NCBI GenBank assembly: GCA_049968235.1
Contig: JBMFRC010000033.1
Span: 1 to 22,070 of the forward strand
Direction: 5' to 3'
DNA length: 22,070 nt
DNA from: Candidatus Hydrogenedens sp.
Lineage (GTDB): Bacteria > Hydrogenedentota > Hydrogenedentia > Hydrogenedentales > Hydrogenedentaceae
Shown: piece after piece, positions 10 through 22,070 of the stretch
Layout of the letters: the number at the start of each line of letters is the position of its first letter
Numbering within the stretch: the stretch's first letter is position 1
Notes under the pieces: generated by a model
The model's database searches: none
The model's input: the letters and a program-made list of their open reading frames with translations, nothing else
Told to the model about the DNA's origin: nothing
Made by a program: the position numbers and the translations under genes

Positions 10-90
10 TATCATAAATTTTACCATTCCCCTCAACAGGTAAATACGAATATCATATTTCCCATTTCAGAGCAAATAACTATCCGCCTA
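10..90. repeat. Imperfect direct repeat, copy A (partner at 21935-22012)
   Basis: Identical 22-nt core ATTCCCCTCAACAGGTAAATAC at 26-47 and 21949-21970. The flanking roughly 45 nt are about 80-85% identical (e.g. ATCATAT...GATTTCAG(A/G)GCAAA). Both copies are intergenic. Confidence 0.7.
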
Positions 91-286
91 TTCATATATC
101 AAAAAAATAATGATTATTGTCAATGTAATGTTTTTATGTAAACCTCCTATTTGGGAGATTTCTCTTCCTGTAATATTTTAATACTCTGTTTTCTCTGTTA
201 ATATAAAAAACTTTAATATTGTGTAGAAACAAATTGTCTGTTGGTTTTGTTTGTACATATTACATTTAACTGTTCCTTGATTCAAT

Positions 287-312
287 AAAAGGGATTTGCT
301 AAACCTTTTTTA
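287..312 (+). terminator. Weak intrinsic-terminator-like hairpin
   Basis: AAAAGG (287-292) pairs with CCTTTT (304-309) around an 11-nt loop and is followed by a T-run (TTTTAT). The AT-rich stem is only 6 bp, so this is a low-confidence call. Confidence 0.2.
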
Positions 313-419
313 TAGGTAGAATGAACACTTTTTCATAATTGTTTTCTAAATTAACGATTTATTTTTAGAAGATAAAGAACAAATTATATTATACTTTTAC
401 AAATATAGAGGGCAATTTT

Positions 420-1076
420 ATGAACCAAGTGTATTTTGAAAAACCAAAACCTGATGAAGTATTGAATTTACTACTGGAAGGAAATCGTTGTTTTGTGGAG
501 GGAAATCTTACGCATCCGAATTCTGACCCAAAACGGAGAAATCTTTCTGCAACAGTATCGCAGGGAGATTATGCTATTGCAACGATTCTTTCCTGCTCGG
601 ATTCCCGTGTTCCTCCGGAACTTATCTTTGACTGCGGTATTATGGACCTTTTTGTTGTTCGTCTTGCGGGAAATGTCCTCTGCAAATCAGCCCTGGCAAG
701 TATTGAATATGGAGTATTACATGTGCATACGCCCCTTCTGCTGGTCATGACTCATAGTCAATGTGGTGCAGTCACTGCAGTTGTTAATGAACTGCAAAAA
801 AGTGAACCTGTAAAAAATTCGGAGCATGAGCATACCCATATTCACAAATTATTTGAATACATAACCCCAATTGTTCAGCCCTTATTGCAAGAGGAAAAAT
901 CGCCTTCGAATATACAGTCCTTTATAAATTTATGTGCCCGTGAACATGCAAAACATATTGTTCAGGAAATAAGACAAAAATCTAAACCCATAGCAGAAAA
1001 AGAATTTTTCGGCAAAGTTAAAATTGTCCCTGTATATTATGAATTAGAAACGGGTAAGGTATTTTGCATAGAATAA
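420..1076 (+). CDS. Beta-class carbonic anhydrase
   Basis: Translation carries the beta-CA zinc-ligand motifs 'SCSDSRVPPE' (Cys/Asp/Arg) and 'HSQCGAV' (His/Cys). AGAGGG lies about 8 nt upstream of ATG 420. Length of 218 aa is typical. An unusual His-rich insert 'SEHEHTHIH' is present. Confidence 0.85.
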   Translation: MNQVYFEKPKPDEVLNLLLEGNRCFVEGNLTHPNSDPKRRNLSATVSQGDYAIATILSCSDSRVPPELIFDCGIMDLFVVRLAGNVLCKSALASIEYGVLHVHTPLLLVMTHSQCGAVTAVVNELQKSEPVKNSEHEHTHIHKLFEYITPIVQPLLQEEKSPSNIQSFINLCAREHAKHIVQEIRQKSKPIAEKEFFGKVKIVPVYYELETGKVFCIE

Positions 1077-1138
1077 TCTGAATTTCTATATATTCTTGAA
1101 TTTATATTATTAACTTTTTTTAGAAAAGGAGCATCAAC

Positions 1139-2530
1139 ATGTCGAGAAAAGAACTGAAAGTTATTAATCCTTACACAGAAAAAGAAATTTATTCCTTCCC
1201 GATGGATACGATAGAAGAGGCATATCAGAAGATAGAAAAGGCATATAAGGCATTTCAAGAATGGCGTTATACTCCGATAAATACAAGGAAAGAATTATGC
1301 TTGAAGTTTATGGAAGAATTTGAAAAGAAACGAGATAATATTGCCCGTGAAATTACAGAGCAAATGGGCAAGCCTTTACAGCAATCCCAAAATGAAATTA
1401 ACACCATGCTGGACCGTGCTCAATATATGATTTCCATTGCGGAACAGACATTGGCGGATGAATATCTTCCTGAAAAACCGGGGTTTGTCCGATATATCCG
1501 TCATGAGCCTATCGGTGTTGTGCTTGATATTTCTGCATGGAATTATCCTTTGCTGATTGCGGTCAATGTAATTGTGCCTGCTATTATGGCTGGCAACACG
1601 GTTATTGTAAAACATGCCCGATTAACACCTCTCTGTGGAAAAGCTTTTGTAGAAGCGTTTGAAAAAGCGGGGGCACCGGAGGGATTAATACAGGATATCA
1701 TAGCAGACCATCAGGTTATTGATGCAGTAATAAAGCATCCCAGAATTGGCTTTGTATCTTTCACAGGTTCTGTCCGTGGTGGTCATGAAGTGGTTCAAAG
1801 TGCCTCTACACGATTCATCAATCAAGGACTGGAATTAGGGGGGAAGGACCCTGCCTATGTCTGTGCCGATGCGGATTTTGATTATGCGGTTGCCAATTGT
1901 GTTGACGGTGCTTTCTATAATGCGGGCCAATCCTGCTGTGCGGTAGAACGAGTTTATGTCGAAGAGCCCATTTACAACAAATTTGTAGATGCATTTGTTG
2001 AACTAACCCGCCAGTATAAATTAGGCGACCCCATGCAAAAAGAAACAACTATAGGCCCCCTGGCCGTATCCTCTGCCCGTCAATTTCTTAAAAAACAGGT
2101 GGAAGAAGCCATCTCGCTGGGAGGTAAACTGGTTGTAAGTCCTGATGATTTTGAAGTGCCTGACCATGGCTGGTTCTTCGCTCCTGCTGTAGTTGCAGAT
2201 GCACCCCAAAAAAGTTCTCTCATGCAGGAGGAAAGTTTCGGCACTGTAATTGGCATCTCACCGGTGAAAAATGATGAAGAAGCCATTGAATATATGAATG
2301 ATAGTCCATATGGATTAACTGCGTCTATATGGACCTCTGACTTTGAAAGAGCCAGAAGAATAGGAGAACGCATCGAAACAGGTACATTTTACATGAACCG
2401 TTGTGATTACTTAGACCCGGCTCTCCCGTGGACGGGTGTTAAAGATACAGGCAGAGGTGCTTCTCTCTCCCATTATGGCTATTATCAATTGACACAACTT
2501 AAAAGTATGCACCTTCGTTTGAAATGGTAA
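1139..2530 (+). CDS. NAD(P)+-dependent aldehyde dehydrogenase (ALDH superfamily)
   Basis: 463 aa. 'ELGGKDP' is the catalytic-Glu motif (ELGGKSP-like) and 'FYNAGQSCCAVERVYV' is the catalytic-Cys motif (GQxCxAxxR). 'FTGS' marks the NAD-binding region. A strong RBS AAAGGAG lies 7 nt upstream of the ATG. Substrate specificity cannot be called from sequence. Confidence 0.85.
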   Translation: MSRKELKVINPYTEKEIYSFPMDTIEEAYQKIEKAYKAFQEWRYTPINTRKELCLKFMEEFEKKRDNIAREITEQMGKPLQQSQNEINTMLDRAQYMISIAEQTLADEYLPEKPGFVRYIRHEPIGVVLDISAWNYPLLIAVNVIVPAIMAGNTVIVKHARLTPLCGKAFVEAFEKAGAPEGLIQDIIADHQVIDAVIKHPRIGFVSFTGSVRGGHEVVQSASTRFINQGLELGGKDPAYVCADADFDYAVANCVDGAFYNAGQSCCAVERVYVEEPIYNKFVDAFVELTRQYKLGDPMQKETTIGPLAVSSARQFLKKQVEEAISLGGKLVVSPDDFEVPDHGWFFAPAVVADAPQKSSLMQEESFGTVIGISPVKNDEEAIEYMNDSPYGLTASIWTSDFERARRIGERIETGTFYMNRCDYLDPALPWTGVKDTGRGASLSHYGYYQLTQLKSMHLRLKW

Positions 2531-2533
2531 CTA

Positions 2534-2908
2534 TTAACTAATACGAAAACAATCTATCACTATTACTTTTTCAACGGCTTCGTCTCGCATAGGAGCAATG
2601 CTTTGATAGTGCGGGTCTTTTAGAAATTGGTAATAATGGTCTATTGATGGCCATTCAATTACACAAAAATAATCCGGATGAAAATCACCTCGAATAATCT
2701 CACGAGGAACAAGTCCAACAACACGATGTGCTCCATACTTTGCCGCAATTGGGTTGGCAGATGCTAAATAAGTACTGTATCTTCGCGAGCCGTTGGGCTT
2801 TTTGAACCATACTGCCTGAAAAATATACGTCTTTTTATCTTTACCTTCTTCCTCTGCTGGCAATTCTTTGTCAGGGACATTCTCATTATTAGAGTTTGCT
2901 GTGCCCAT
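2534..2908 (-). CDS. DUF1330-like small protein (hypothetical)
   Basis: 124 aa. The C-terminal two-thirds ('AKYGAHRVVGL...VIEWPSIDHYYQFLKDPHYQSIAPMRDEAVEKVIVI') matches the DUF1330 pattern I recall (KYGG..L.RG....EG......VVIEFPS.E.A..WY.SPEYQ...LR). An acidic, disordered N-terminal extension is present. Its stop is 3 bp from the ALDH stop on the opposite strand. Confidence 0.55.
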   Translation of the reverse strand: MGTANSNNENVPDKELPAEEEGKDKKTYIFQAVWFKKPNGSRRYSTYLASANPIAAKYGAHRVVGLVPREIIRGDFHPDYFCVIEWPSIDHYYQFLKDPHYQSIAPMRDEAVEKVIVIDCFRIS

Positions 2909-3405
2909 ATCACTACCTCCTGATTAAATATCTTCATCTCAAATTAATATATCACGAAATATCACAAAATAAAAATTTTTTAATAGGAATCACGATATAA
3001 TAAAAACCAAATGTAAAGAAGCTTACAAAAAACAAACCATAGATTTTTAAATTGTTATATAAAAAAATTCTATTTTTAATGTATAACTAAAAATCTTTTT
3101 CTTTCTAAATTAAAGTAAAAATACTTTGCATTTTTTAAATTTTACAAAGAGAAATCCATATTTTTGCAAACAAGCCAACTTGCAAAATTATCATTATTAT
3201 CATTATGCAGATATAAAATATTACATTTATGTGTATTTTTTATTTATTTATAAAAAAATAAGGTATTTTTATAAAAAAATTGCCTTAAAACTTAATATTT
3301 ATTACATAATGGAATTATTAAACATATATTTTGTGTTGATTTTATACAATAATGTATGTTAATATATACATATTATTTTCAAATAATTTTTTCGGAGTTA
3401 CTAAA

Positions 3406-6400
3406 ATGCAGAAAGAACCTCACCAACAAAAAACTTTATATGCCCCTTTCTTTGAACATGATGCCTGTGGCGTGGGATTTATTGTAAATATTGATGGGAA
3501 GAGAACTCATCAATTAGTGAAAGATGCCCTTCGTATATTGGTAAATCTTACCCATCGCGGTGCATGTGGGTGCGACCCTGAAACGGGTGATGGTTGTGGT
3601 ATTTTATTTCATATTCCTCATCGTTTTTTTGAGAAGCAATCCGATAGTTTAGGTTTTGATTTACCTTCTCCGGGGCAATATGGGATAGGAATGGTTTTTC
3701 TTCCAGGAGACAATCAATTAAGAAGTGTTTGCAAAGAAATGTTAAAACAGACTATTTTGGAAGAGGGTCAGGGATTTTTAGGTTGGCGCGAGGTTCCACG
3801 AAATTCTCAATGTATTGGCTGGCTTGCCCGTTCTAACGAGCCCATTATTGAACAAATATTTATAAAAAATGTAACCTGCCCGGATATTGAATCTTTTGAA
3901 CGCAAACTATTTATCATTCGTAAGTCTGCTTCTCATAAAATTCGACAATTTTTGAAAGAGCAAAAAAATCTTTTTTATATAACAAGTATGTCTGCGAGGA
4001 CAATTGTATATAAGGGTCTATTTTTACCTGAAGTCATGGATAAATATTACGAAGATTTAGCAGACCCTGAAGTAGAGAGTGCTTTAGCGATTATTCATCA
4101 GCGGTATAGTACCAACACACTTCCCAGCTGGCAATTAGCACAACCATTTCGTTTTCTTGCTCACAATGGAGAAATTAATACCCTGCGAGGGAATATCAAT
4201 CTTATGTGTTCGCGTGAATCGGATTTGAAAAGCCCTCTTTATGGAGATGATATAAAGAAACTATTTCCTATTTTAACAGAGGGAGCCAGTGACTCTGCCA
4301 TTTTTGACAATGCTTTTGAATTGCTCGTTCGGGGAGGTCGTAGCATTGCTCATTCCATGATGATGATGATACCTGAACCCTGGAGTCATCACGAAAGTAT
4401 GCCGGATTTTAAGAAGGCTTTCTATGAATTCCATGCATGTAAGATGGAACCCTGGGATGGACCCGCATGTATGGCTTTTACAGATGGAGTACAGATAGGA
4501 GCCGTTCTTGACCGTAACGGACTGCGTCCGGCTCGCTACTGGATTACCACAGACCAGCAAGTTATTATGGCTTCTGAAGTGGGAGTTTTAGACATACCAC
4601 AGGAAAAAATTGTAAAGAAATGGCGATTGCAACCGGGTCGTATGTTCCTTGTGGACCTCAATGAAAAACGAATTATTGAAGATGATGAAATAAAAGAGAC
4701 CTTAGCCAACAGGAAACCTTATCGTGCATGGCTCAGTTTAAACCGTATTATTTTCCCGCAAGAAGTACTGGAGACAAGACCTACAACAGAATTAGTTCCA
4801 CTTCGTAAAAGGCAAAAAATTTTTGGTTATACAGAAGAGGATATCTCGCTTTTGCTCAAGCCAATGGCAGAAACAGGGGCAGAACCTGTGGGTTCAATGG
4901 GGAATGATGTTCCTTTAGCAGTTCTTTCAGAACGACCCCAATTATTATTTAATTATTTCAAACAGTTATTTGCCCAGGTCACAAATCCGCCTTTAGACCC
5001 CATACGCGAAGAAATTGTTATGTCTCTCGAAACGGACATTGGTCGGGAATATAACCTTTTAGATGAAACTCCTGAAGATTGCCAGATGATACATCTACAT
5101 TCTCCGATTCTTACCAATGCACAGGTAACTTATATTCGCAATTTAAAGAAAAAAGGACATCGGGCAGAATCTATCAGTACATTATTCTCAGTAAAGGAAG
5201 GTATTCCGGGCTTTCTAAATGCCATTGACCGAATTTGTAAAGAAGCCGAAAAATATGTGGATAATGGGGCTACCGTTTTAATTCTTTCGGACCGTGGAGC
5301 AGGACTACATCATGCACCCCTTCCCAGTTTATTAGCCACAGGTGCGATTCATCATCATCTTGTTCGTGTTCACAAACGGACTCGCTGTGGAATTGTTGTT
5401 GAGAGTGGCGAACCTCGTGAAGTGATGCATTTTGCCCTGTTGTGTGGATATGGCGCCGGTGCTATTAATCCTTATCTCGCTTTTGAAACTATCTCGGAAG
5501 GTATTGAGGAAGGGAAAATTGTTGAAGAATATCCCGGTAAAGCCCATAAAAAATATATTAAAGCCATTGAAAAAGGGTTATTAAAAACTATGTCGAAAAT
5601 GGGTATTTCTACCCTCCAAAGTTATCGATGTGCTCAGATTTTTGAAGCGTTAGGTCTAAGTCAGGAGGTAATCGACCGCTGTTTCACAGGCACACCTTCC
5701 CGGATAGGGGGATTAGACCTTGAAGATATAGCACGGGAAACCTTAATGCGTCATGAGATGGCTTATAATCCGTTAAAATTCCGTGAAAACGAGTTAGATA
5801 TTGGCGGGGCGTATCGCTGGCGACAGAGAGGTGAGTTCCATCAATGGAATCCGGAGACTATTTCTCTTATCCAGCATGCTACTCGATTAAACAGTTGGCA
5901 GAAATATCAGCAATTTGCAGAAGAAGTTAATAATCGAAATCGGACTTTTGCAACACTTCGCGGACTACTTAAATTTAAGAAAGGAAACCCTATACCCTTA
6001 GAGGAAGTTGAACCTGCTTCTGAAATTGTAAAACGGTTCTGTACAGGGGCTATGTCCTATGGTTCTATTAGTCAGGAAGCCCATGAGAATCTTGCTCTTG
6101 CCATGAATCGTATTGGTGGAAGAAGTAATACGGGAGAAGGAGGTGAAGACCCCAAACGATTCATCCCGGAACCTAACGGTGATAGCAAACGCAGTGCAAT
6201 TAAGCAAGTAGCCTCTGGAAGATTTGGTGTAACTAATGAATACCTTGTCAATGCGGATGAATTACAAATAAAGATGGCTCAGGGAGCTAAACCAGGAGAA
6301 GGAGGACAGTTACCAGGGCATAAAGTATACGAAAATATCGCTAAAGTTCGATATTCGACACCGGGCGTGGAACTGATTTCCCCTCCACCACACCATGATA

Positions 6401-7941: not shown

Positions 7942-7953
7942 GGGAGAATTTTT

Positions 7954-9444
7954 ATGTTTCCTGAAAAATCAAAAGGTTTCATGGTATATAAAAGGGAATT
8001 GGGTCCCGAAGACCCTCCCCAGGAACGAATAAAACATTTTCGTGAATTTCATCATTCTCTACCGGAAGAAAAAATTCGACAGCAGGCATATCGCTGTATG
8101 AATTGTGGTGTTCCATTCTGTCATCATGGCTGTCCTCTGGGCAATCAAATTCCCGATTTTAATGATCTGGTAAAAGATGCTGATTGGAAACGGGCATTGG
8201 AAGTACTACATTCCACGAACAATTTTCCGGAATTTACAGGTAGGGTTTGCCCTGCTCCCTGTGAAACTTCTTGTATTTTAGGAATTAATGAACCTCCGGT
8301 AACCATTGAACAAATTGAATATGAAATTGCAGAGCGTGGATGGCGTGAAGGATGGATTAAACCGCACCCCCCCGAGCAGCGAACTGGGAAACGCGTTGCT
8401 ATTATAGGTTCAGGACCCAGTGGTCTGGCATCTGCTCAACAACTCAATCGAGCAGGTCATTATGTAGATGTATTTGAAAGAGCGGATGAACCCGGCGGTT
8501 TGTTAATGTATGGAATTCCCGGATTTAAATTGGATAAATCCATTGTTTGGAGAAGAATTAATCAAATTATAGATGAAGGGGTAACCTTTAATTGTTCTTC
8601 TGAAGTAGGGAAAAATATACCGGTAGAACAATTACTGACATATGATGCGGTTTTATTTACGATAGGTTCAACAATTGCACGGACCTTCACAAGTATGAAT
8701 ATTCCCGGTTCTTCCCTTGCAGGTATCCATACCGCAATGGACTTTCTTACACAAAGCACACGAAGAGTATTGGGGAAAAAAATAGATGGGAAAGAAATCT
8801 TAGCCACAAATAAAAATGTTATCGTTATTGGAGGTGGAGACACAGGTTCCGATTGTATTGGGACAAGCATTCGGCAGGGATGTAAATCTGTTGTGAATCT
8901 TGAACTTTTACCGCGTCCCCCGTTAGAAAGAACGGGAGACAATCTCTGGCCTCAATGGCCCATGATACTCCGCACATCGTCCAGTCATGAGGAAGGAGGA
9001 GAACGATTATTCAGCGTTTCTACGAAAGCCTTTGAAGGAGATGAACGCGGTCATGTGAAAGCCATTCATCTGGTCCGTGTAGAATGGTATACAGATGAAA
9101 ATGGACAAAAACGAATGCGGGAAATTCCTGGCTCGGACATGAAATTACCCTGTGAATTGGTTCTCCTTGCGATGGGCTTTGTTGCACCAGAATCAGATAT
9201 ATTTGTTGAAAAATTAGGGATAGAACTTTGTACTACTCGCTTTGGAAAAGCCATTAAAACAGACCCTAAATATATGACCACACGCCGTGGATTTTTCGCA
9301 GCAGGCGATGCGCGTAGAGGACAATCGCTTGTTGTTTGGGCAATCTCTGAGGGAAGAGAATCCGCTCGTTGTATTGATGAATATCTCATGGGTAGAACAT
9401 ATCTGCATGCGAAGAACTCCTGGGGCTATTCTTGCCAGAAATAA
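7954..9444 (+). CDS. gltD: Glutamate synthase small (NAD(P)H-dependent) subunit
   Basis: 496 aa. It sits 12 nt after gltB with RBS AAGGGAG. It has two Cys clusters ('CMNCGVPFCHHGCP', 'CPAPCETSC'), the Rossmann FAD/NAD motifs 'AIIGSGPSGLASA' and 'VIVIGGGDTGSD', and a C-terminal 'FAAGD' motif. Confidence 0.93.
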   Translation: MFPEKSKGFMVYKRELGPEDPPQERIKHFREFHHSLPEEKIRQQAYRCMNCGVPFCHHGCPLGNQIPDFNDLVKDADWKRALEVLHSTNNFPEFTGRVCPAPCETSCILGINEPPVTIEQIEYEIAERGWREGWIKPHPPEQRTGKRVAIIGSGPSGLASAQQLNRAGHYVDVFERADEPGGLLMYGIPGFKLDKSIVWRRINQIIDEGVTFNCSSEVGKNIPVEQLLTYDAVLFTIGSTIARTFTSMNIPGSSLAGIHTAMDFLTQSTRRVLGKKIDGKEILATNKNVIVIGGGDTGSDCIGTSIRQGCKSVVNLELLPRPPLERTGDNLWPQWPMILRTSSSHEEGGERLFSVSTKAFEGDERGHVKAIHLVRVEWYTDENGQKRMREIPGSDMKLPCELVLLAMGFVAPESDIFVEKLGIELCTTRFGKAIKTDPKYMTTRRGFFAAGDARRGQSLVVWAISEGRESARCIDEYLMGRTYLHAKNSWGYSCQK

Positions 9445-9456
9445 GAAATTTAAGAT

Positions 9457-10314
9457 TTATCTTTTTTGTTCAAGGGCAGAACGGTATTGATTAATTCGTT
9501 CGAGCCATGTGGTAGTGAGGGTAAGCGGGTATACAGTATATCGGGGAGAAGTAGCAGGTTTTGTTTGAAATTCTTTTTCTGCTTCGGGAATCATCTGTCT
9601 GTAACTTATATCTGGTGGGGTGAATTTTGCATTAGAATTTTTAGCGTTAGTAATAAAACGAATAGAACGATTTATATCACTAGCACTTCTTTTCGTCTTT
9701 ACAAGGGTTTTGGGGTCTGTTCCCCACTCATATAAAATCACAGGTCCATTGTTTCCGGTAGCGACACCTGCCATAGATAAATCTGTCCCACTGCGATAAT
9801 CCATCATTGCATCCAGCCAATCAAAGGGAATTCCATAATAATAATCATACGCACCGAATACCCTACCTTCCGAGAAGCCATCATTATATCCATCTGTAAA
9901 ACCCCCATCTAACCATTCCACATGCTTATCTGTTTTGAGGAATGCCTTCCAGTTTGCCTGGTAAGCACAATCATAACCTTCACTAAAACCGATAGTAAAA
10001 GCATAGTCATATTCCACAAAGTAACCATCATTATATGCGAACCATAAACCGTCGTAATACCCTGCATCATAAGGAGGATTTTCTACCTGCGGTATTTGTT
10101 CCCCCTGATAGTATATTGCTCCGCCATTTACAGTATCATAACTATCAAAAAAACCAGTCCAATAGTATTCGTCCTGTGCAAAACCATCATTAAAACCGCG
10201 TTCATATTCTGCATTATCAGTAATTATGGGACACCCTATAAATGCAACTATAATGAGCGGTAAAATTCCTAAATACAGTCTCCGCATTTTGCTCTTTCTG
10301 CTTTCCTGTTTCAT
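9457..10314 (-). CDS. Putative lipoprotein with aromatic/Asp-Gly repeats (hypothetical)
   Basis: The ORF extends to 10368. I place the start at ATG 10314 (MKQESRKSKMRRLYLGILPLIIVAFIGC...) because AAGGAA lies 6 nt upstream. The N-terminus has a positively charged n-region, a hydrophobic h-region and a lipobox-like 'FIGC'. The mature part holds at least 6 copies of G[F/Y]xDG[F/Y/L] and is extremely Tyr/Trp/Asp/Gly-rich. I recognise no homology. It is co-oriented with, and 35 nt downstream of, the 849-aa gene. Confidence 0.6.
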   Translation of the reverse strand: MKQESRKSKMRRLYLGILPLIIVAFIGCPIITDNAEYERGFNDGFAQDEYYWTGFFDSYDTVNGGAIYYQGEQIPQVENPPYDAGYYDGLWFAYNDGYFVEYDYAFTIGFSEGYDCAYQANWKAFLKTDKHVEWLDGGFTDGYNDGFSEGRVFGAYDYYYGIPFDWLDAMMDYRSGTDLSMAGVATGNNGPVILYEWGTDPKTLVKTKRSASDINRSIRFITNAKNSNAKFTPPDISYRQMIPEAEKEFQTKPATSPRYTVYPLTLTTTWLERINQYRSALEQKR

Positions 10315-10348
10315 AATACATTCCTTATATAAAAATTGTTTTAATCTT

Positions 10349-12898
10349 TTATCGTATCCCTCTTCCACCCAGAGAAGACCTGCCGTTTGAGAATCCTGGT
10401 GATTGCCTCTGGAAAGAAGGGGTGCTCGGTGTAGCGAAGGAAGGTGTATTTACTTTCGGTACGGAAAAACTTGATGGAGCGGAATTGCGTTCTATCGGAG
10501 GGGAACTCATTGTCGTAGCAGAGGATGACGGAGGAGTTACAGAGAAACTCCTAGTACTCAAACTGTTTCTATTGAATGATGGAAAAGAAGAAATGGAGTT
10601 TTTATTTGTATTTCTTGAAATCCCGAAAGATGTATTTCCTCTCGGGACATCAGGGACAGAGAAAGACATATCTTTCTGAGGGGGAAGTGTTCGAACGGAA
10701 ATCCCGGAGTTTCCGCTAATGGATGTTCTTTCTGGGAAGATATTCACATTGGCTTCTCTCAAGGTTCCTCTTGAAAATGTTCCTGCTCCTCTATTACCAT
10801 CTGTTGAACGAATTTGAAATTCGGGAACAGATGTGCGTTGAGGTGTTTCATGTTGATTTCTCACAGAGCCATAAGTCCCAATATCTGTTGGCGTTTGTTT
10901 CATATTATCCCAATTTAAGCCGGAACCTCTTGTATTTCCGCGACTACCCGGATTATTACGGTCTGTTGGTATAGAACGCGGAGTAGTATTGTCTCTATCT
11001 CGATTTGTTGTTCCTGACCCTGAATCATTCCGGGGAGTTGTTCGTGTAGGGCTTGTCGTTGAACCACCTCCGGATGGATCATACTCACGGGGTTTCCGTT
11101 CACCATTCATATCCAGTCTTGAAAAAGATGGGGATTCAATCCCTTTGCGGGAAACTCCCTCTGATTGATTGGGTATTTCGGAGAAGGCATTTCTTATTCC
11201 TCTGTTTACTGCAGGTGGGTTTAGAACTCTTGTCGGAGATGATTCCGAACGAAGTGTATTCCTAACATCAGCACTTCGGACGGGAGAACCTATATTTTCA
11301 CGGACAGATTGTATTTGTGTATTTCGCTCTATAGCCCGAGTAAATCCGGTGTCAATTTCTTTACCTCGAATTGAACTACGGTCCGTTGATGAACCTCTTT
11401 GCGAAAGGACTTCGGGAGCGAAACGGGTAGCAGTTGCCTCTGGAGAGGTGGTGTTTAATCTTACCTCACGGAAAGAACTGGAACGCTCATTTAACATAGC
11501 GGTCCGCATAGCGGAAGAAGGCATTCCTGTTTGACTTCGGAAACCTTGTGTCGAGGTTCTTCGTGTAAAATAACTTTCCAATTCTTCTACACGGGCTCGT
11601 GCAAGTATCCCTGAATTATTATAGTTAGCAATACCTCGAATAGTTCTCGGCGGATTATAATCGCGAACCATCGGCATTGAGTTCTGGTAAGGGATGCGTA
11701 TCCTTTGAGAAGGATAGCGTTCTATATTCCAGACATAAACATTTGTTGGATTGTTTATAATGTAATTAACAACTGTAGGTGCCACAGGTGCGATATAGTA
11801 AGGAGATGTATAAACATAAGTTGCAGGGACATAGGAACAGGCACCTACATAAAAGTTTAGACCACCCACCGCAAAACTAACTCCTGTGGAAACTCGAACG
11901 GGCCGGCAATAAAAGTCTACGGGTGTCCAAATAAAATAATCACCACAACGAACCGTAGCCACCCACGCTGGACTCCATACCGGATCATATCCCCAAACCC
12001 AACCATAACTATCATAATAGACCCAACGACCATAGTGTGTGGTGATATATCCGAAAGGATAGGTCTCTACCCAAACGGAACCTATGGGTGATACATAAGT
12101 CCAATATCCTGTCCGATATGGGACATAATTAATAACGACGGTTGGTCTCCAATAATATCGTTCATCAATAAGAACCCAATCTCCATATCGTGATAATTCT
12201 GTATATCCGATTGTCCGATTTGTAACTTCCACATATTTCGGGGGTGTTTTCACGGGAGCAGAGAGTAATTCGGACCGACCTTGATTCCAGCGGTCAAACG
12301 AATCCATTTCAGTTGTTGCAAAGGATACTACTTCAGAGGGCAAATATCCGACATCAACCCAGCATTGTTTACCACTACTTACAACTTCGTTACCTCCGCG
12401 TTCTGTTGTTACATACACCTTTCCCCAGCGTGTCGAAACTCGTGTTGTTCCACTTTCTCCAATGTCTATACGAACACAGGTATCCGGGTCAAAGGTAATG
12501 TTACACGATGGAGTAGTAAAGCGAACGGTCCCAGAACTGCGAAGTACTCTTTCAACATAAAAAGAACCTGTTATACCATATATGGATAGTTCCGGGGAAA
12601 TCTTAACTATTTTTGCTTTAGAAGCATCTGCCATACGGAAGAAGACACCTTCCGGAAATTCAATCTCCGTGCTACCTCCTTTATCCACCCACAATGTATC
12701 CCCTGTTAGCACAAGTGTATTTAAGGTGGCACGGCTCCAATCTTCATCATCCATCCCCCGAATAAGCGTACTTTCGCCATCGTAACTTACCCGCCCATGC
12801 AAAGGGAAGTCTGTATCTGCAAATACCCAGAATGTAGACACGAGTGCCATATTGAATGTAATTACGGCACAAAATTTTGCTATCTTAAAATATTTCAT
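10349..12898 (-). CDS. Secreted FecR-domain protein with Trp/Tyr-rich domain and long Arg/Ser/Thr-rich disordered C-terminal region (hypothetical)
   Basis: A single uninterrupted 849-codon ORF. The N-terminal signal peptide is 'MKYFKIAKFCAVITFNMALVSTFWVFA|DTD'. Residues roughly 30-200 look like a FecR-type beta-sandwich domain. Residues roughly 230-400 are a W/Y-rich segment ('HYGRWVYYDSYGWVWGYDPVWSPAW'). The last roughly 410 aa are low-complexity and rich in R/S/T/N/P/G. Coding status rests on ORF length, far beyond chance, even in the biased tail. Confidence 0.8.
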   Translation of the reverse strand: MKYFKIAKFCAVITFNMALVSTFWVFADTDFPLHGRVSYDGESTLIRGMDDEDWSRATLNTLVLTGDTLWVDKGGSTEIEFPEGVFFRMADASKAKIVKISPELSIYGITGSFYVERVLRSSGTVRFTTPSCNITFDPDTCVRIDIGESGTTRVSTRWGKVYVTTERGGNEVVSSGKQCWVDVGYLPSEVVSFATTEMDSFDRWNQGRSELLSAPVKTPPKYVEVTNRTIGYTELSRYGDWVLIDERYYWRPTVVINYVPYRTGYWTYVSPIGSVWVETYPFGYITTHYGRWVYYDSYGWVWGYDPVWSPAWVATVRCGDYFIWTPVDFYCRPVRVSTGVSFAVGGLNFYVGACSYVPATYVYTSPYYIAPVAPTVVNYIINNPTNVYVWNIERYPSQRIRIPYQNSMPMVRDYNPPRTIRGIANYNNSGILARARVEELESYFTRRTSTQGFRSQTGMPSSAMRTAMLNERSSSFREVRLNTTSPEATATRFAPEVLSQRGSSTDRSSIRGKEIDTGFTRAIERNTQIQSVRENIGSPVRSADVRNTLRSESSPTRVLNPPAVNRGIRNAFSEIPNQSEGVSRKGIESPSFSRLDMNGERKPREYDPSGGGSTTSPTRTTPRNDSGSGTTNRDRDNTTPRSIPTDRNNPGSRGNTRGSGLNWDNMKQTPTDIGTYGSVRNQHETPQRTSVPEFQIRSTDGNRGAGTFSRGTLREANVNIFPERTSISGNSGISVRTLPPQKDMSFSVPDVPRGNTSFGISRNTNKNSISSFPSFNRNSLSTRSFSVTPPSSSATTMSSPPIERNSAPSSFSVPKVNTPSFATPSTPSFQRQSPGFSNGRSSLGGRGIR

Positions 12899-13141
12899 AT
12901 ATTTGCCCTTTCTATAGGATATAGTTACATATTCAATTGTTAATCTCTTTATCCATTAATAATAAACGAAATACAAATTACGAATATTCAGTGGAAGTAA
13001 TGTATAATCCTTCTTCTTACACCAAAATTCCTCATGCAAAATTACTTAGATAGATAATTTCAAAAAACATAAGTGATTGTATTATCATTTTACCATTATT
13101 AAACATATTAAGATGTAATTCGTGATAAAGGTAGTTTTAAG

Positions 13142-14071: not shown

Positions 14072-14091
14072 TCCTCTTAAATATCTTTTTA

Positions 14092-14913: not shown

Positions 14914-14937
14914 ACAAAGAATCTCCTTGCAGAAAGT

Positions 14938-16050: not shown

Positions 16051-16064
16051 ATCTATACTATGTA

Positions 16065-17093
16065 TTAATGTTTAATTTTAACTGTTTTCCCTGTCAGAGC
16101 AGATTTTTCAGCGGATAAGATAATTTCCAGAGCCTTCTTTCCTTCTTCACCTGTGCAATATGGAGGTTCTAATCCTAAAACGGCACGAACAAAAGCACCT
16201 CCAATATCAATTCCCCAACTTACATTCGTATAGGGTTCAGGAAGAGGGAAAACAATATCGCAAAGGGGTTTCACCAGATTTGCCACAACAGGTTTCTCAG
16301 GATTTACACCTACTTGAAGGGAACCCTGCTCACAATGGAGAATAATATAATCTGCGGACATTCCTTTGACCGTCCATGAGGCGGACAATGTCCCCAAAGT
16401 ACCATCTGTGAATTTCAAGGCAGAGACAAAGTTATCTTCTACTGTAGCATTGGGTTTTTCCAATCGCCCATAAAAAGCACATATCTCTGCCACTTCTTTT
16501 CCTGTCAAATAACGGATAAGGTCTGCCTTATGAACACCCAAATCCGCCATAGCACCAAATCGTGCTTCTTTCTTATTAAAAAACCATTTACCCGTAGGAC
16601 TCCACTCCTCCGGTCCTGCATGGCCAAACATAGCCGTTACATGAAGTATTTTTCCGAGGATACCGCTCTCCACTACCTCTTTGGCTTTCCGATGTTCCGG
16701 AAAACGACGCTGACTTTGATTAACCATGAGTAGCAGTCCTTTCTTCTTTGCGGTATCAATCATTTTTTGGGCTTCTTCCAAACTGGTCGCCATAGGTTTT
16801 TCGACAAGGACATGACAGCCTGAATTTAATGCCATAATTGTTGCAGGTCCATGATATATATTCGGAGTGCATATCGAAACACCATCTATACCGCCCTCTT
16901 TAAACATCTGCCTATAATCGGTATAAACTCGAGCATGAGGTGCAAATTGTTTTGCAAGGGCTTCTGCCTTCTTCTTTTCTACATCACAAAAAGCCACCAA
17001 TTCTGCTTGTGGACATGCATGATAATCAGGAACATGAACTCTTTCCGCAATGGCTCCACAACCAATCACTCCTATTTTCACCTTCTTTGACAT
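16065..17093 (-). CDS. Gfo/Idh/MocA-family NAD(P)-dependent oxidoreductase
   Basis: An N-terminal Rossmann fold 'KIGVIGCGAIAERVHVPDY' is followed by a typical Gfo/Idh/MocA C-terminal alpha/beta domain. RBS AAGGAGA lies upstream. It sits 14 nt upstream of aroB on the same strand. Confidence 0.85.
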   Translation of the reverse strand: MSKKVKIGVIGCGAIAERVHVPDYHACPQAELVAFCDVEKKKAEALAKQFAPHARVYTDYRQMFKEGGIDGVSICTPNIYHGPATIMALNSGCHVLVEKPMATSLEEAQKMIDTAKKKGLLLMVNQSQRRFPEHRKAKEVVESGILGKILHVTAMFGHAGPEEWSPTGKWFFNKKEARFGAMADLGVHKADLIRYLTGKEVAEICAFYGRLEKPNATVEDNFVSALKFTDGTLGTLSASWTVKGMSADYIILHCEQGSLQVGVNPEKPVVANLVKPLCDIVFPLPEPYTNVSWGIDIGGAFVRAVLGLEPPYCTGEEGKKALEIILSAEKSALTGKTVKIKH

Positions 17094-17169
17094 ACTACTT
17101 TCTCCTTCTTGTTATGAGTTGGAAAAATAACAATGTTTTATCAGATTGATAATATATAACTTTTTCAAA

Positions 17170-17199
17170 TTGACATTATTATCCCAAAAAAAGTATTCT
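17170..17199 (+). promoter_or_regulatory. Candidate sigma70-like promoter for the secreted GH-like gene
   Basis: Consensus -35 TTGACA at 17170-17175. A 17-18 nt spacer leads to a weak -10 (GTATTC/TATTCT) about 45 nt upstream of ATG 17249. Sequence pattern only. Confidence 0.25.
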
Positions 17200-17248
17200 A
17201 TTTACATAATTCTGGATATAATTTAATAATTTACTTATAAGGTTTATT

Positions 17249-18412
17249 ATGCGATATAGAATCTTAAGTTTCACAATCTGTTTTTTTATTTCATCCATTA
17301 TCTTTTGCTCATTTATACATGCTCAAACATTACCTCAGGGAAAAATAAAGGATATTTCTCAATTATGGCAAAAAAATTATAAAGATATATTAAGTGGCTT
17401 CGGGAATATGTATAACTTTCATGTCCTGCATGAACCCGGAGCAGAATATCCCTTTAGGGCATGGTTCTCTGGCTGGGCGTTTGAAGATTGTAACAGAAAT
17501 ATACCCAATTTTAAAGGTTGTGATGCTATCTTTACGGCACGAGCCAAAAAATTGGAGGGGACATGGGAAGTATATGCGGGTGATGATACATGGGATAATA
17601 CAGGAAATCCGAAGTTATGGAAACCTCTCTTTAGCCCCTCCGGTACTTATTTTGACGAATGGCATAATGGAGACCCTTCTGTAATTAAAGTGGGGGAAAA
17701 ATATTATCTGGCATATAGTGCAACTGGACATGATAAAGATCGTATTCCTGCCGACAATCCCAATGATACTGATGGCAGTTTTTACTGTATTATGGGAGCC
17801 ATATCAGAAGATGGGATACACTGGAACCGTTCCGAAAAGCCAATATTAGAGTATACTAACGAGTTAGGCGGTAAAGACAAAACAGGTGATGTTACTTTAT
17901 GGGGCACTTATCATCGACCTTCAATTATATATGAAGATGGCAGATTTAAAATCTGGTTCGATTACTGGACACCTCGTGGAACTGCTATGGGCTATGCGGA
18001 AAATCAAGGGGACTTTTTAAAATCGGAAGACTGGAAATTTATTCGTATAGGAGAAAATCCCTGTATATGGGAATTTCCCAACCCCGATGTTATAAAAGTA
18101 GATGATGTATATTATGCTTATGCAGACCCCGGAGGATACGAGAATCATGAATGGAAAGGACGAAAAATCACAGAAGGCATATCTCGCAATGGTATGGACT
18201 GGCAAATCACAGGATATATAGAACCTGAGTCGGATACACCTGCAACACATGTTCCTGAAGCCCTTGTAATGAGGAAAAATGATAAGAACCTTATCTATCT
18301 TTTCTATTCCTGTCAAATTGGCGGAGAGCCTTCTAAATATAATTTTCGATATAATCGAATCCGTTATATGTACCGCGAAGTCCCACCATCTGAAATAAAA
18401 AAAGGAATATAA
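17249..18412 (+). CDS. Secreted beta-propeller glycoside hydrolase-like protein (GH43/GH130-like clan; family uncertain)
   Basis: Signal peptide 'MRYRILSFTICFFISSIIFCSFIHA|QT'. It has repeated blade-like motifs: 'GDPSVIKVGEKYYLAYSATG', 'GAISEDGIHWNRSEKPIL', 'HRPSIIYEDGRFKIWFD' and 'PDVIKVDDVYYAYAD'. The family assignment is by motif resemblance only. Confidence 0.5.
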   Translation: MRYRILSFTICFFISSIIFCSFIHAQTLPQGKIKDISQLWQKNYKDILSGFGNMYNFHVLHEPGAEYPFRAWFSGWAFEDCNRNIPNFKGCDAIFTARAKKLEGTWEVYAGDDTWDNTGNPKLWKPLFSPSGTYFDEWHNGDPSVIKVGEKYYLAYSATGHDKDRIPADNPNDTDGSFYCIMGAISEDGIHWNRSEKPILEYTNELGGKDKTGDVTLWGTYHRPSIIYEDGRFKIWFDYWTPRGTAMGYAENQGDFLKSEDWKFIRIGENPCIWEFPNPDVIKVDDVYYAYADPGGYENHEWKGRKITEGISRNGMDWQITGYIEPESDTPATHVPEALVMRKNDKNLIYLFYSCQIGGEPSKYNFRYNRIRYMYREVPPSEIKKGI

Positions 18413-18455
18413 CAAAAGGAAATAAAATCAAACTGTATTGAAAAACAAAATTTGT

Positions 18456-19472
18456 TTATATCCTTTTTTTAAGAGCATGTTCGACGAATTTCTGTATCAT
18501 TTGTTCATAAGTGATACCCGCACATTTTGCTTCCTGTGGATACAAAGATGTCTGTGTTAACCCCGGAATAGGATTTATTTCTATCCAGACGGGTCCTTCC
18601 TCGTCAATAATAAAATCGCTTCGGCTCCATGTAGAACAGCCAATTGCCTGATGTGCAAGCACAGCCATTTCTTGAACCTTTTGTGTTTGTTCCGGCTCAA
18701 TTGGTGCAGGAGTAATTTCATCCGTAGCACCCGGCGTATACTTCGCTGTATAGTCAAAAAACGAACTCGTTTTAGGGCAAATCTCCGTAACAGGCAAAGC
18801 ACGCGGTGGTATGCCCTCTTCACAATCCCAGACTCCACATGTAACTTCACGCCCATTTATAAATTTCTCTACCAGCACTTCTTTATCCCACTCTAAAGCC
18901 TGTTCAATCCCTTCTAGAAGGGATTCCGCATTTTTTGCTATCGTAACTCCCACACTGGAGCCTTGAGATACAGGTTTTACAACTACAGGGAAACCCAATT
19001 CATTTTCCACACGAAAAACAGAATCGGAACGGTCCCATATCCATGTATCCTGATGGAAAACAACATGGTCAGCAACGCGAATACCTGCTATCTTCGCAAC
19101 CGCCTTGGAACGTACCTTATTCATCGCAAGAGCACATGCAGAACAATCGGAGCCTGTAAACGGAATGTGAAGCCATTCGAGCAATCCCTGAATGCGTCCA
19201 TCCTCACCGAAGGCTCCATGAAGTGCATTAAAAATCACATGAATTCCTATCCGTTTCAATTCAGCAAGGGCTTCTTCTGTTTTCAATATACGTTTCTCCG
19301 GAAATTCCCAATTGAAATTGCGATGGATAATTATAGGAATAGGCTCATATTCTGTTTCGCTTAATGCATGTACCACACCTTCCCCCGACAAAAGCGATAT
19401 TTCATGCTCCGAACTTACGCCACCCATCAATACACCTACCCGTACCAAAGCAGAAGATTTCTTCGGTTTCAT
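18456..19472 (-). CDS. ddl: D-alanine--D-alanine ligase
   Basis: N-terminal 'VGVLMGGVSSEHEISLLSGEGV' and an ATP-grasp core ('EINPIPGLTQTSLYPQ'). Length of 338 aa fits Ddl. Confidence 0.9.
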   Translation of the reverse strand: MKPKKSSALVRVGVLMGGVSSEHEISLLSGEGVVHALSETEYEPIPIIIHRNFNWEFPEKRILKTEEALAELKRIGIHVIFNALHGAFGEDGRIQGLLEWLHIPFTGSDCSACALAMNKVRSKAVAKIAGIRVADHVVFHQDTWIWDRSDSVFRVENELGFPVVVKPVSQGSSVGVTIAKNAESLLEGIEQALEWDKEVLVEKFINGREVTCGVWDCEEGIPPRALPVTEICPKTSSFFDYTAKYTPGATDEITPAPIEPEQTQKVQEMAVLAHQAIGCSTWSRSDFIIDEEGPVWIEINPIPGLTQTSLYPQEAKCAGITYEQMIQKFVEHALKKRI

Positions 19473-19727
19473 AGATATTTTCCTAAAATAAAAGAGAGAA
19501 AAGAATTTTTTTATCTGGGAGAATTATTAAGATAGATTTTATCACTTATCCTGGTAATATCTCAATAATTCATTCTATACCACATTTGCAGGATAAGCCC
19601 TTATATATAAATTTTTTCACACTAGAAGATTTCTATCCCTATTTATTCTAATTGTATATCTACCTTAAAATACTATATTCTATCATTTACCTTGAACTTA
19701 AACATGTAAGAAGATAAGAATTCTATC

Positions 19728-21431
19728 ATGAAAAAAAAAGTGGAAAAGCCGTTAATTGTTCAATCGGACCGTACCATTTTATTAGAGGTCGAAAATCCAT
19801 TATACGAGGAGGCACGGGATGCTCTGTCTGCATTTGCCGAACTGGTAAAATCACCGGAGCATTTTCACACTTATCGGATTACACCAATTTCGCTATGGAA
19901 TTCTGCTTCCGCAGGTTATACTGCAACACAAATTATTGACCTGCTTCAGAAATATAGCCGATATGATGTGCCGTCAAATCTAATTTATGAAATTACAGAT
20001 ACAGTTCGTCGTTATGGCAGACTGAAACTATATAAAAGTCCACAACAGGAACTAATTCTTGAATCCGATGATACTATGCTCCTTTCAGAATTGCTCTACA
20101 ACAAAGCCTTGCAGGAGTTCGGATTAACTAAATTGGATTCGCGTCGGGTTCGTGTGAATACGCAATTTCGTGGGCATTTAAAAAGTGTCCTAGTAAAATT
20201 AGGTTTTCCTGCGGAAGACCTCGCGGGATATGTGGAAGGGGCTCCATTACAATTTGACCTCCGAAAAAAACTGCCATCGGGCAAACCTTTTCTCTTACGA
20301 AATTACCAGACAGATGCTATCTCTGCTTTTTATGCAGGTGGGACAAACCGTGGTGGAAGTGGCGTTATTGTTCTCCCCTGTGGGGCGGGTAAAACCATTG
20401 TCGGAATCGGCGTCATGTATAAACTTCAAACACATACCCTTGTGTTAACAACCAATACAGTGGCACTACGGCAATGGAAAACAGAACTACTTGAAAAAAC
20501 GACACTGACGGAGGACCAAATCGGCGAATATAGCGGAGATATGAAAGAAATTAAACCTGTAACACTGGCGACCTATCAGATTTTAACTCATCGTAAAACA
20601 AAAGATAGCCCTTTTCTCCATTTCCGTTTATTCGAAGATGGTGCCTGGGGATTAATTATCTACGATGAAGTGCATCTACTACCTGCGCCAGTATTCCGTG
20701 CTACGGCAGATTTACAAGCACGCCGAAGATTGGGACTTACCGCTACCTTAGTTCGCGAAGATGGTCGCGAAGATGAAGTATTCAGCCTTATCGGACCTAA
20801 AAAATGCGACATCCCATGGAAAGTATTAGAAAAGCAGGGCTGGATAGCCGAAGCCCTCTGCACCGAAGTGCGCGTGCCAATCATGGAAGACGACCGCTAT
20901 AAATATGTCGTGGCGTCAAAATCCGCCAAATTTCAAATTGCATCAAAAAATCCAATAAAGATAAGTATCTGCAAACAAATTTTAAACCACCACAAAGAGG
21001 ATAATGTCCTCATTATCGGTCAATATTTAGACCAACTTAAAGTTATACAAAAAAACTTCGGCGCACCTATTATTACAGGGCAAACACCCAATAAAAAGAG
21101 AGAAGAACTGTATCAAAAATTCCGTAATGGAGAAATAAAACTTCTGATTGTCTCTAAAGTAGCCAATTTTGCCATTGACCTGCCCGATGCTAATGTCGCC
21201 ATTCAGGTGTCCGGCACCTTCGGTTCACGACAGGAAGAAGCACAGCGATTGGGTAGAATACTCCGCCCAAAAGAATCCGGCAAACAAGCCCACTTCTATA
21301 CTATTGTTACACGCGATACATTGGACCAGGATTATGCTCTCAACCGGCAACTCTTCCTAACTGAACAGGGGTATCAATACAAAATTATTTCTATGGAACA
21401 ATTAAACGAATTTTTTGATAATACAAGATAG
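19728..21431 (+). CDS. XPB/Ssl2(Rad25)-family SF2 DNA repair helicase
   Basis: Q-motif 'LRNYQ', Walker A 'LPCGAGKT' and DEVH box 'IIYDEVHLLPAPVFR'. Motif III is followed by the XPB-specific RED motif ('GLTATLVREDGRE'). Motif VI is 'QVSGTFGSRQEEAQRLGRILR'. An XPB-type N-terminal domain is present ('PLIVQSDRTILLEV...PEHFHTYRITPISLWN...SRYDVP'). It is near co-linear with actinobacterial XPB as I recall it. No obvious RBS; the ATG is followed immediately by an A9 run. Confidence 0.88.
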   Translation: MKKKVEKPLIVQSDRTILLEVENPLYEEARDALSAFAELVKSPEHFHTYRITPISLWNSASAGYTATQIIDLLQKYSRYDVPSNLIYEITDTVRRYGRLKLYKSPQQELILESDDTMLLSELLYNKALQEFGLTKLDSRRVRVNTQFRGHLKSVLVKLGFPAEDLAGYVEGAPLQFDLRKKLPSGKPFLLRNYQTDAISAFYAGGTNRGGSGVIVLPCGAGKTIVGIGVMYKLQTHTLVLTTNTVALRQWKTELLEKTTLTEDQIGEYSGDMKEIKPVTLATYQILTHRKTKDSPFLHFRLFEDGAWGLIIYDEVHLLPAPVFRATADLQARRRLGLTATLVREDGREDEVFSLIGPKKCDIPWKVLEKQGWIAEALCTEVRVPIMEDDRYKYVVASKSAKFQIASKNPIKISICKQILNHHKEDNVLIIGQYLDQLKVIQKNFGAPIITGQTPNKKREELYQKFRNGEIKLLIVSKVANFAIDLPDANVAIQVSGTFGSRQEEAQRLGRILRPKESGKQAHFYTIVTRDTLDQDYALNRQLFLTEQGYQYKIISMEQLNEFFDNTR

Positions 21432-21472
21432 TTAAAAATCTGCAAATTCTAAATAAGAAAAGGAGATTTAAC

Positions 21473-21895
21473 ATGTCTGAAGAAAAAACCGTCTGGTCAG
21501 GAACACCGTCGCAGGTTTTGAATTTCTGGATATTCATCTTTTGCCTGCTTACCTGTTTCCTGGTAGTCCCGATTTTCTACGCTCTCTGGAAATACATTGT
21601 AGTTAAATGCACAAAATATGTAATCACGACCGAAAGAGTTAAAATTACAACGGGTGTATTCTCCACAAGAACAGATTACATGGAGTTGTATCGTATCAAT
21701 GATATAACATTCGAACAACCCCTCCTATTAAGAATATTCTCATTAGGCAACCTAAAATTCACCACAACCGATACCTCGACACCCGAACTTATACTACAAG
21801 CAATACCCGCATCCGAAAATCTCCTAAACGAAGTCCGTAAATGCATTGAAACACAAAGAGACAAAAAACGTGCTCGCGTCGTCGATTTCACATAA
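21473..21895 (+). CDS. Membrane protein with bacterial PH domain (bPH_2 / YdbS-like, DUF304)
   Basis: 140 aa. An N-terminal hydrophobic hairpin ('VLNFWIFIFCLLTCFLVVPIFYALWKYIVV') is followed by a bPH_2-like core ('YVITTERVKITTGVFSTRTDYMELYRINDITFEQPLLLRIFSLGNLKF'). A strong RBS AAAAGGAGA lies 7 nt upstream. It sits 41 nt after the helicase stop. Confidence 0.75.
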   Translation: MSEEKTVWSGTPSQVLNFWIFIFCLLTCFLVVPIFYALWKYIVVKCTKYVITTERVKITTGVFSTRTDYMELYRINDITFEQPLLLRIFSLGNLKFTTTDTSTPELILQAIPASENLLNEVRKCIETQRDKKRARVVDFT

Positions 21896-21934
21896 GTAAA
21901 TATTCATTTCACACCACAACACACAAAGCATAGC

Positions 21935-22012
21935 CCATTAATTCTGCTATTCCCCTCAACAGGTAAATACAAAAATCATATATCCGATTTCAGGGCAAAA
22001 TATGTTTAACCT
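21935..22012. repeat. Imperfect direct repeat, copy B (partner at 10-90)
   Basis: See copy A. It lies downstream of the bPH gene stop (21895). Confidence 0.7.
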
Positions 22013-22070
22013 AAATGTAGAACAGGGATTCTGTCTGTATTTTACAATCACAAGCGAGATGCTTGTGTTC

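Follow-up and report, generated by a model that had tools for sequence, protein, structure and literature searches.

Here we report on a 64-nt direct repeat, two copies of which lie close to either end of a 22,070-nt stretch of DNA from Candidatus Hydrogenedens sp. (contig JBMFRC010000033.1; the whole stretch is referred to below as the window). The repeat is real and non-random, far beyond what chance would produce, it is intergenic in both places, and its left copy folds into a long imperfect hairpin when read as minus-strand RNA. As the best explanation available we tentatively favour a species-specific family of hairpin repeats resembling the repetitive extragenic palindromes (REPs) and the miniature inverted-repeat transposable elements (MITEs), further copies of which would reside elsewhere in the genome and confuse its assembly.

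Ungapped extension aligns positions 13–76 with 21936–21999 in direct orientation, with 55 of the 64 nucleotides (86%) identical, and the alignment includes an exact 22-mer, ATTCCCCTCAACAGGTAAATAC, which a scan of the whole window places at 26–47 and 21949–21970, on the plus strand in both cases. A sequence-only reading of the window had pointed out this shared 22-mer, which the scan confirms at these two sites only, and had described imperfect direct repeats of about 80 bp; the repeats are indeed real, direct and imperfect, but the unit measures 64 nt. No third site for the 22-mer occurs in the window when up to three mismatches are allowed, and none of 100 dinucleotide shuffles contains a match. 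Self-BLAST returns the 64-nt pair as the sole self-match of the window (E 1.1e-14). The likeness between the copies ends at 13/21936 on the left and at about 76/21999 on the right, beyond which the two sets of flanks do not align with each other, and no significant tandem or degenerate copies were detected elsewhere in the window or in the 257 nt to its left that are known from a sister contig. Each 64-nt unit is laid out as a 44-nt palindrome (29–72 and 21952–21995) with a conserved tail of 16 nt on one side only (13–28 and 21936–21951). Gene coordinates bear out the earlier statement that both copies, to neither of which a strand is assigned, are intergenic and sit beside the carbonic anhydrase and bPH genes: the left copy is separated by 344 nt from the carbonic anhydrase ATG at 420, in an upstream spacer that measures at least 676 nt, and the right copy follows the bPH_2 stop at 21895 by 41 nt and precedes the contig end by 71 nt.

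The sequence-only reading had proposed folding the copies with RNAalifold, and on the minus strand this yields one long imperfect hairpin; in the three-sequence alignment 50 of the 51 pair cells hold standard pairs, without covariation. The left hairpin (29–72, minus strand) comprises 17–18 RNA pairs, five of them G-U, and its counterpart in the right copy (21952–21995, minus strand) is weakened, with 16 of 17 pairs still possible. Folded alone, the minus strand of the left copy (27–74) reaches −16.1 kcal/mol (z −5.8, equalled in 0 of 200 shuffles), and the allele on sister contig L001 reaches −15.5 kcal/mol (z −3.8). On the plus strand the same segments attain −3 to −4 kcal/mol with z around 0 (−0.5 for the left copy), and plus-strand folding of whole 100-nt segments does no better than shuffles; this asymmetry between the strands arises because of the five G-U pairs. 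As DNA the hairpins are weak (−4.7 and −2.7 kcal/mol). Three pairs are altered on one side yet remain paired, and one is broken. Among the six substitutions in the hairpin region, three are compatible with wobble pairing, two fall on unpaired positions and one is disruptive, for which a rough binomial calculation assuming a 60% expectation gives p of about 0.04–0.09; the sparing of pairing by substitutions is thus suggestive, not proof. The stem does not resemble an intrinsic terminator, being followed on the minus strand by AAUGGUAAAAUU or AAUAGCAGAAUU with no U-run, and a scan found neither promoter-like nor terminator-like sites within either copy. A weak terminator-like hairpin on the plus strand (144–168) lies outside the repeat, some 70 nt downstream of the left copy.

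The position of the two copies finds a simple explanation in the nature of the window, which is one complete contig of a Candidatus Hydrogenedens metagenome-assembled genome (MAG), its NCBI proteins (MGC8739687 to MGC8739701) being 15 for 15 genes; both copies are therefore near contig ends. That the repeats bracket exactly 22 kb, as had been stressed, is true, but since the window is the complete contig this is an assembly effect and denotes no biological boundary. Wherever repeats are found at both ends of a window, the first check should be whether that window is a whole contig. This region is also present, on shorter contigs and with at least 99.9% identity, in two sister MAGs (GCA_049971155.1, GCA_049969095.1). 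On the left side, sister contig L002 reaches 257 nt past the window, without any gene being called in the extension, and L001 reaches 35 nt past it; on the right side, the last base of sister contig L003 is also that of the window. Contig ends hence fall no more than 257 nt from the left copy in three assemblies, and on the right two assemblies terminate at one and the same base, with a perfect 7-bp stem-loop, CACAAGC-GAGAT-GCTTGTG (22049–22067, plus strand), only 3 nt before it. The terminal breaks are not due to AT-richness, because a 443-nt spacer of only 18% GC (2909–3351) is crossed by the window, L001 and L002 alike. The probability that the sole repeat of a contig should by chance have both copies within 135 nt of the contig ends is about 1e-4, and for this reason we conclude that the repeat, or DNA containing it, is causally linked to the assembly stops.

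The edge of the repeat also coincides with a sharp boundary in strain divergence. Over the 14.4 kb that follow position 71, only 10 positions distinguish L001/L004 from the window (0.07%; 99.93% identity), whereas the stretch 1–71 holds eight differences from L001 in 71 nt. In an ungapped comparison of L001 with L002, the 43 nt that precede the repeat are 72% identical, the repeat itself is 92.6% identical, and the sequence to its right matches at about 100%. Five of the L001 differences fall within the 64-mer, and three of these five are the base present in the right copy. The switch at 71 is at most about 5 nt from the point where the two window copies cease to match (76). A boundary of this kind is expected from exchange among repeat copies or from an assembler jumping between copies, and either event would in turn mean that one or more further copies exist whose homology with the left one is longer. 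Alternatively, the repeat edge could be a recombination junction next to strain-variable DNA; plain allelic import that ended at the repeat edge by luck is possible but unlikely. The L001 variant was also considered as an R2/R1 hybrid, a reading that was rejected, the variant being a mosaic with its own left flank.

No copy of the repeat was recovered from related genomes. Searches with nhmmer and with covariance model R1 over about 1.1 Mb of related loci were negative; 55 carbonic-anhydrase-anchored loci came from genomes and 68 from metagenomes, and the searches took in all 55 genome loci together with the eight closest metagenome loci (L079–L086). In the bPH relatives L006–L010, which share 86–88% protein identity, what follows the gene is either a convergent opp operon, 25 nt away, or an unrelated 374-nt spacer, and for the 539-aa gene that relatives carry beyond bPH these MAGs yielded no orthologue. 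In the carbonic anhydrase relatives L079–L083 the upstream neighbour is a divergent fliD; the gene, located at 3814–5535 (minus strand) of L081 and present in L079 and L083 as well, encodes a 573-aa protein with the N-terminus MSGTFNIGGLVSGLDT..., which we take to be FliD-like (flagellar cap). In the lineage of the window the first 676 nt upstream of carbonic anhydrase contain no start of a fliD-like gene, and therefore the neighbourhood has been rearranged or something has been inserted. On these comparisons both copies are lineage-specific and reside in spacers whose neighbours differ from those of relatives, the spacer flanking either copy has no alignable counterpart in them, and absence from relatives at 83–88% protein identity is typical of recently spread repeats. 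A synteny breakpoint alone carries little weight, because the gene order of the genus is shuffled at many places without the repeat; the ddl–helicase–bPH block, for its part, is chromosomal and syntenic in relatives. The literature on Hydrogenedens MAGs yielded nothing relevant. One relative, L081, harbours a repeat-rich non-coding stretch downstream of its aldehyde dehydrogenase gene (8230–9014; also about 8600–8820 in L079); within it are several direct repeats of 40–110 nt (75–87% identity), a 22-nt palindrome without mismatches, and motifs resembling TTAACCACAGAGGACACGGAGG. Intergenic repeats thus occur in other genomes of Hydrogenedens as well, though their sequences bear no relation to that of the 64-nt repeat.

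If the two 64-nt sequences are members of a dispersed family, they would be copies of a small, non-coding and non-autonomous repeat private to this uncultured Candidatus Hydrogenedens lineage. Further copies in the genome, some of which would resemble these two more closely than the pair resemble each other, would stall short-read assemblies or switch them between loci and would in this way leave copies at both ends of a complete contig, and the 'third version' of the left copy in the sister assembly would have come about by ectopic gene conversion or by an assembly path that jumped between copies. The hairpin would be the likely functional or recognition part, either recognised as single-stranded DNA or RNA by the agent that spreads the repeat, or operating as an RNA stem within a minus-strand transcript that crosses it. 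From the assembly and divergence patterns we infer more than two copies, and any mode of spread or effect on transcripts is put forward in the same conditional sense. Among the three options that the sequence-only reading had listed, the dispersed REP/MITE-like element agrees best with the palindrome, the lineage-specific spacers, the contig ends and the divergence boundary, although target-site duplications are lacking.

A number of observations weigh against this explanation. Only two loci have actually been observed, so the size of the family is extrapolated, and the remaining 13 of the 15 window spacers do not carry the motif. The right-copy hairpin is thermodynamically weak on the minus strand (−10.3 kcal/mol, z −1.3), no compensatory (double) base changes occur in the three-sequence alignment, neither copy has a target-site duplication, and the REP GTAG motif is missing from both 64-mers on either strand. 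Queries of large DNA collections were equally negative: TTCCCNTCAACAGGTAAATAC had 0 matches among 185,579 GTDB species genomes and TCAACAGGTAAATACNNNNATCATAT had 0 in the JGI metagenomes, this species being included in neither collection, CCNTCAACAGGTAAATAC produced 12 chance seeds in IMG/VR, none of which extended and all of which scored 13 bits or less, and BLASTN of both flanks against plasmids and phages returned nothing. The assemblies themselves give further reason for caution. Breaks also occur at random positions within genes in the sister MAG contigs, a sign of low coverage, so that gaps in coverage may account for some contig ends; the MAG of the window may have reads in common with its sisters, which would weaken the argument from identical end bases; and the L002 assembly passes through the left copy without interruption.

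A short piece of spacer may instead have been duplicated only once, for example when rearrangements changed this region relative to other Hydrogenedens, and have since been decaying without function, its place at the contig ends being due in part to luck and in part to low coverage. We regard such a two-copy relic as unlikely, albeit as the alternative to be taken most seriously. There are only two copies in the window, they have diverged by 14%, the right-copy hairpin is weakened, the gene order around both is unlike that of relatives, and the sister MAGs are fragmented at random positions, all of which a relic would accommodate. It sits uneasily with the low probability (about 1e-4) of finding both copies within 135 nt of contig ends, with a strain-divergence boundary at most 5 nt from the repeat edge, with 92.6% identity between strains in the repeat vs 72% in the adjacent 43 nt, and with the retention of 16–17 of the 17 palindrome pairs in both copies. 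That boundary, like the reproducible contig breaks on both sides, would be accounted for if the copies were subterminal ends of mobile or strain-variable DNA outside the contig, either IS200/IS605-like hairpins or attR/attL cores, with the 22-kb housekeeping block between them. The direct orientation, the hairpin-plus-tail architecture and the strand asymmetry would fit the ends of IS200/IS605 elements, and the flanks are lineage-specific, relatives having fliD beside carbonic anhydrase and other genes after bPH. However, no transposase or integrase starts in the 257 nt to the left (L002) or in the 71 nt to the right of the right copy, the only open reading frames (ORFs) there (70 aa and 23+ aa) have neither a Pfam match nor a homologue in 5.8 billion clusters, the hairpin is weak as DNA, and no tRNA or other usual att target is present; we hold mobile-element ends to be less likely again than a relic. 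More speculative, and improbable in our estimation, is an undescribed HUH-type or site-specific recombination system in the Hydrogenedentota, for which the hairpin-plus-tail modules would serve as recognition ends with crossover or cleavage at about 71–76, precisely where the sister strain switches from 99.9% to 72–92% identity, and which would mobilise or swap the strain-variable flanks.

The repeat may otherwise be part of a functional minus-strand RNA, its hairpin acting as a stabiliser, a processing site, a terminator without a U-tract or part of a small RNA or antisense RNA, and may have been duplicated for its usefulness. Folding that depends on G-U pairs and on the strand (z −5.8 vs about 0), substitutions most of which spare pairing, and a repeat that is more conserved between strains than its flank are all consistent with such a role. 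They have to be set against the lack of any Rfam match up to E 10, of a U-tract after the stem and of any compensatory change, against promoter-like sites that are no commoner than in shuffles and absent near the right copy, against the unlike contexts of the copies (divergent from the carbonic anhydrase gene vs antisense to the 3' end of bPH), and against the absence of the element from relatives with the same genes, and a functional RNA accordingly appears doubtful, slightly more so than mobile-element ends. By far the least credible proposition is that the copies are attL and attR of an excisable 22-kb island, or that a small circular replicon was cut in a repeat-rich spacer, even though direct repeats with a 22-nt identical core at both ends would suit either. 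The cargo consists of gltBD, aroB, ddl, aldehyde dehydrogenase and the like with no recombinase, replication or partition gene, ddl–helicase–bPH is a chromosomal block shared in order with relatives, and the contig ends do not overlap, the 257-nt extension of L002 matching nothing at the right end. The sequence-only reading had considered att sites of an island unlikely, which the housekeeping genes, the missing recombinase and the conserved block make reasonable. A circular replicon and a tandem duplication of the 22 kb were both rejected on the grounds that the ends do not overlap.

The dispersed hairpin repeat that we favour can be compared with several well-known classes of element. REPs, together with REPINs, are repetitive extragenic palindromes of Proteobacteria that are spread by RAYT transposases. 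The Hydrogenedens repeat is like them short, strictly extragenic and lineage-specific, an imperfect palindrome able to form a stem-loop whose copies diverge by point substitutions, and REPs are known to fragment short-read assemblies; its 17 pairs, with a z of −5.8 in the left copy, fall within the stem-loop format of a REP palindrome (about 20–45 nt). In contrast to REPs, the 64-mer has no 5' GTAG/GTGG motif, no Y1 transposase is encoded in the window, and the stem is AT-rich with many G-U pairs where REP stems are GC-rich; unlike REPINs, the copies are singletons and not inverted doublets. We know of no described REP family in the Hydrogenedentota. With MITEs such as Correia/NEMIS, RUP and ERIC the repeat has in common a small non-coding intergenic format and inverted-repeat arms, and these elements too can sit at synteny-variable junctions. 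It is, however, 64 nt long as opposed to the typical 100–400 nt, its arms are internal and contiguous (29–72, with a 3-nt loop) rather than terminal, its 16-nt tail is on one side only, and the flanks have no common duplication of 2–10 nt, CTAT flanking the left copy alone. The left-end and right-end hairpins of the IS200/IS605 (HUH) elements and the PATE derivatives are similar imperfect hairpins, directly oriented, strand-specific and not inverted repeats; the differences are that neither tnpA nor tnpB is found in the 257 nt left or 71 nt right of the copies, that the hairpin is weak as DNA, and that each copy would need to be part of a separate element beyond the contig. A likeness to attL/attR is not apparent, there being no integrase and no tRNA or tmRNA, and the cargo being housekeeping and partly syntenic with relatives. 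The repeats of type I toxin–antitoxin systems (LDR and QUAD/Sib-Ibs of E. coli) are likewise dispersed, intergenic and endowed with a mini-ORF on one strand, but here the right copy does not preserve the start of the mini-ORF, the peptide has no convincing membrane helix, and no antisense promoter or terminator is evident at the repeat. A by-eye inspection for Sigma-54, NtcA, IHF, dif and attC motifs revealed none fitting both copies. The repeat is, in sum, new, yet an ordinary-looking small hairpin repeat.

Coding readings of the repeat were tried and rejected. The nine positions at which the copies differ are not spaced with any codon periodicity. The plus-strand frame ..SPQQVNT.II.PIS.Q.. 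has a stop in the right copy; a minus-strand mini-ORF in the left copy, MNRRIVICSEMGNMIFVFTC followed by a stop, loses its start in the right copy, where the changes are mostly non-synonymous; and the minus-strand tail ..MIFVFTC, also ending in a stop, has neither periodicity nor a conserved start, homologue or Pfam match. Searches of Pfam, of 5.8 billion protein clusters and of some 1 Mb of related loci brought up no homologue of any peptide across the repeat. At ATG 22002, 3 nt beyond the right copy, begins an ORF (MFNLNVEQGFCLYFTITSEMLVF...) that is cut off by the contig end and contains the 22049–22067 hairpin; neither this ORF (23+ aa) nor the 70-aa minus-strand ORF left of the window has a Pfam match or a homologue.

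The carbonic anhydrase gene does not have its core promoter in the repeat. In relatives with 83–87% identical carbonic anhydrase, only window positions of about 356–395 align in the upstream spacer, and the conserved promoter-like site TTTAGA-17-TATTAT (364–392, plus strand) lies within this sole aligning block, about 290 nt downstream of the left copy. The suggestion of a recurrent operator or promoter module consequently found no support, given this distance, the lack of the motif in any other window spacer and its absence upstream of the gene in relatives; nor did that of a plus-strand small RNA or leader, for which the plus-strand z is about 0 and no Rfam match exists.

Pfam backs the earlier annotation of the 15 genes between the copies. 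They include the genes for beta-carbonic anhydrase (420–1076) and bPH_2 (21473–21895); the others encode an aldehyde dehydrogenase, a DUF1330 protein, gltB, gltD, an unknown 303-aa protein, a DUF6600 protein, PP2C, a TPR protein, aroB, a Gfo/Idh/MocA oxidoreductase, an unknown 387-aa protein, ddl and an XPB-like helicase. None of the 15 is an integrase or transposase, Y1 transposases included, and the window contains no tRNA or tmRNA. Rfam families at gathering thresholds are absent from the whole window, and at E values up to 10 both ends return only noise of 13–18 bits.

Some features of these genes are recorded in their own right. An XPB/ERCC3-type helicase gene followed by the small bPH_2 gene (19728–21895) is kept as a pair beside ddl in all Hydrogenedens relatives examined, with the same pair at about 8231–10423 in L006–L009. 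The aldehyde dehydrogenase and bPH_2 genes, both second in their operons, have a 22-nt start region that is 86% identical (1122–1143 vs 21456–21477; AGAAAAGGAG...AACATGTC), a likeness that probably reflects a strong Shine–Dalgarno sequence and similar first codons. The longest ORF for gltB begins at 3352 (1529 aa) and the MAG annotation of 1511 aa corresponds to a start at about 3406 (site at 3352–3441; L001 3441); the true start is uncertain. On the minus strand, 9457–12898 holds two overlapping genes of unknown function, one of 303 aa without a Pfam match and one of 849 aa with DUF6600, a pair that is conserved in the sister MAGs. In the distant relative L013, whose carbonic anhydrase is 72% identical, a second copy of the 3' end of that gene lies 6 kb further downstream (10479–10630 vs 16551–16704, 96% identity over 154 nt).

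Should the repeat prove to be a dispersed hairpin element, it would represent a first small family of repeats recorded from the uncultured phylum Hydrogenedentota. Its value would then be mainly that of a practical marker, one that explains breaks in MAG assemblies, lends itself to strain typing and flags spots of ectopic recombination. It would bear on a long-standing question only if the edge of the repeat turned out to mark a junction of recombination or transposition.

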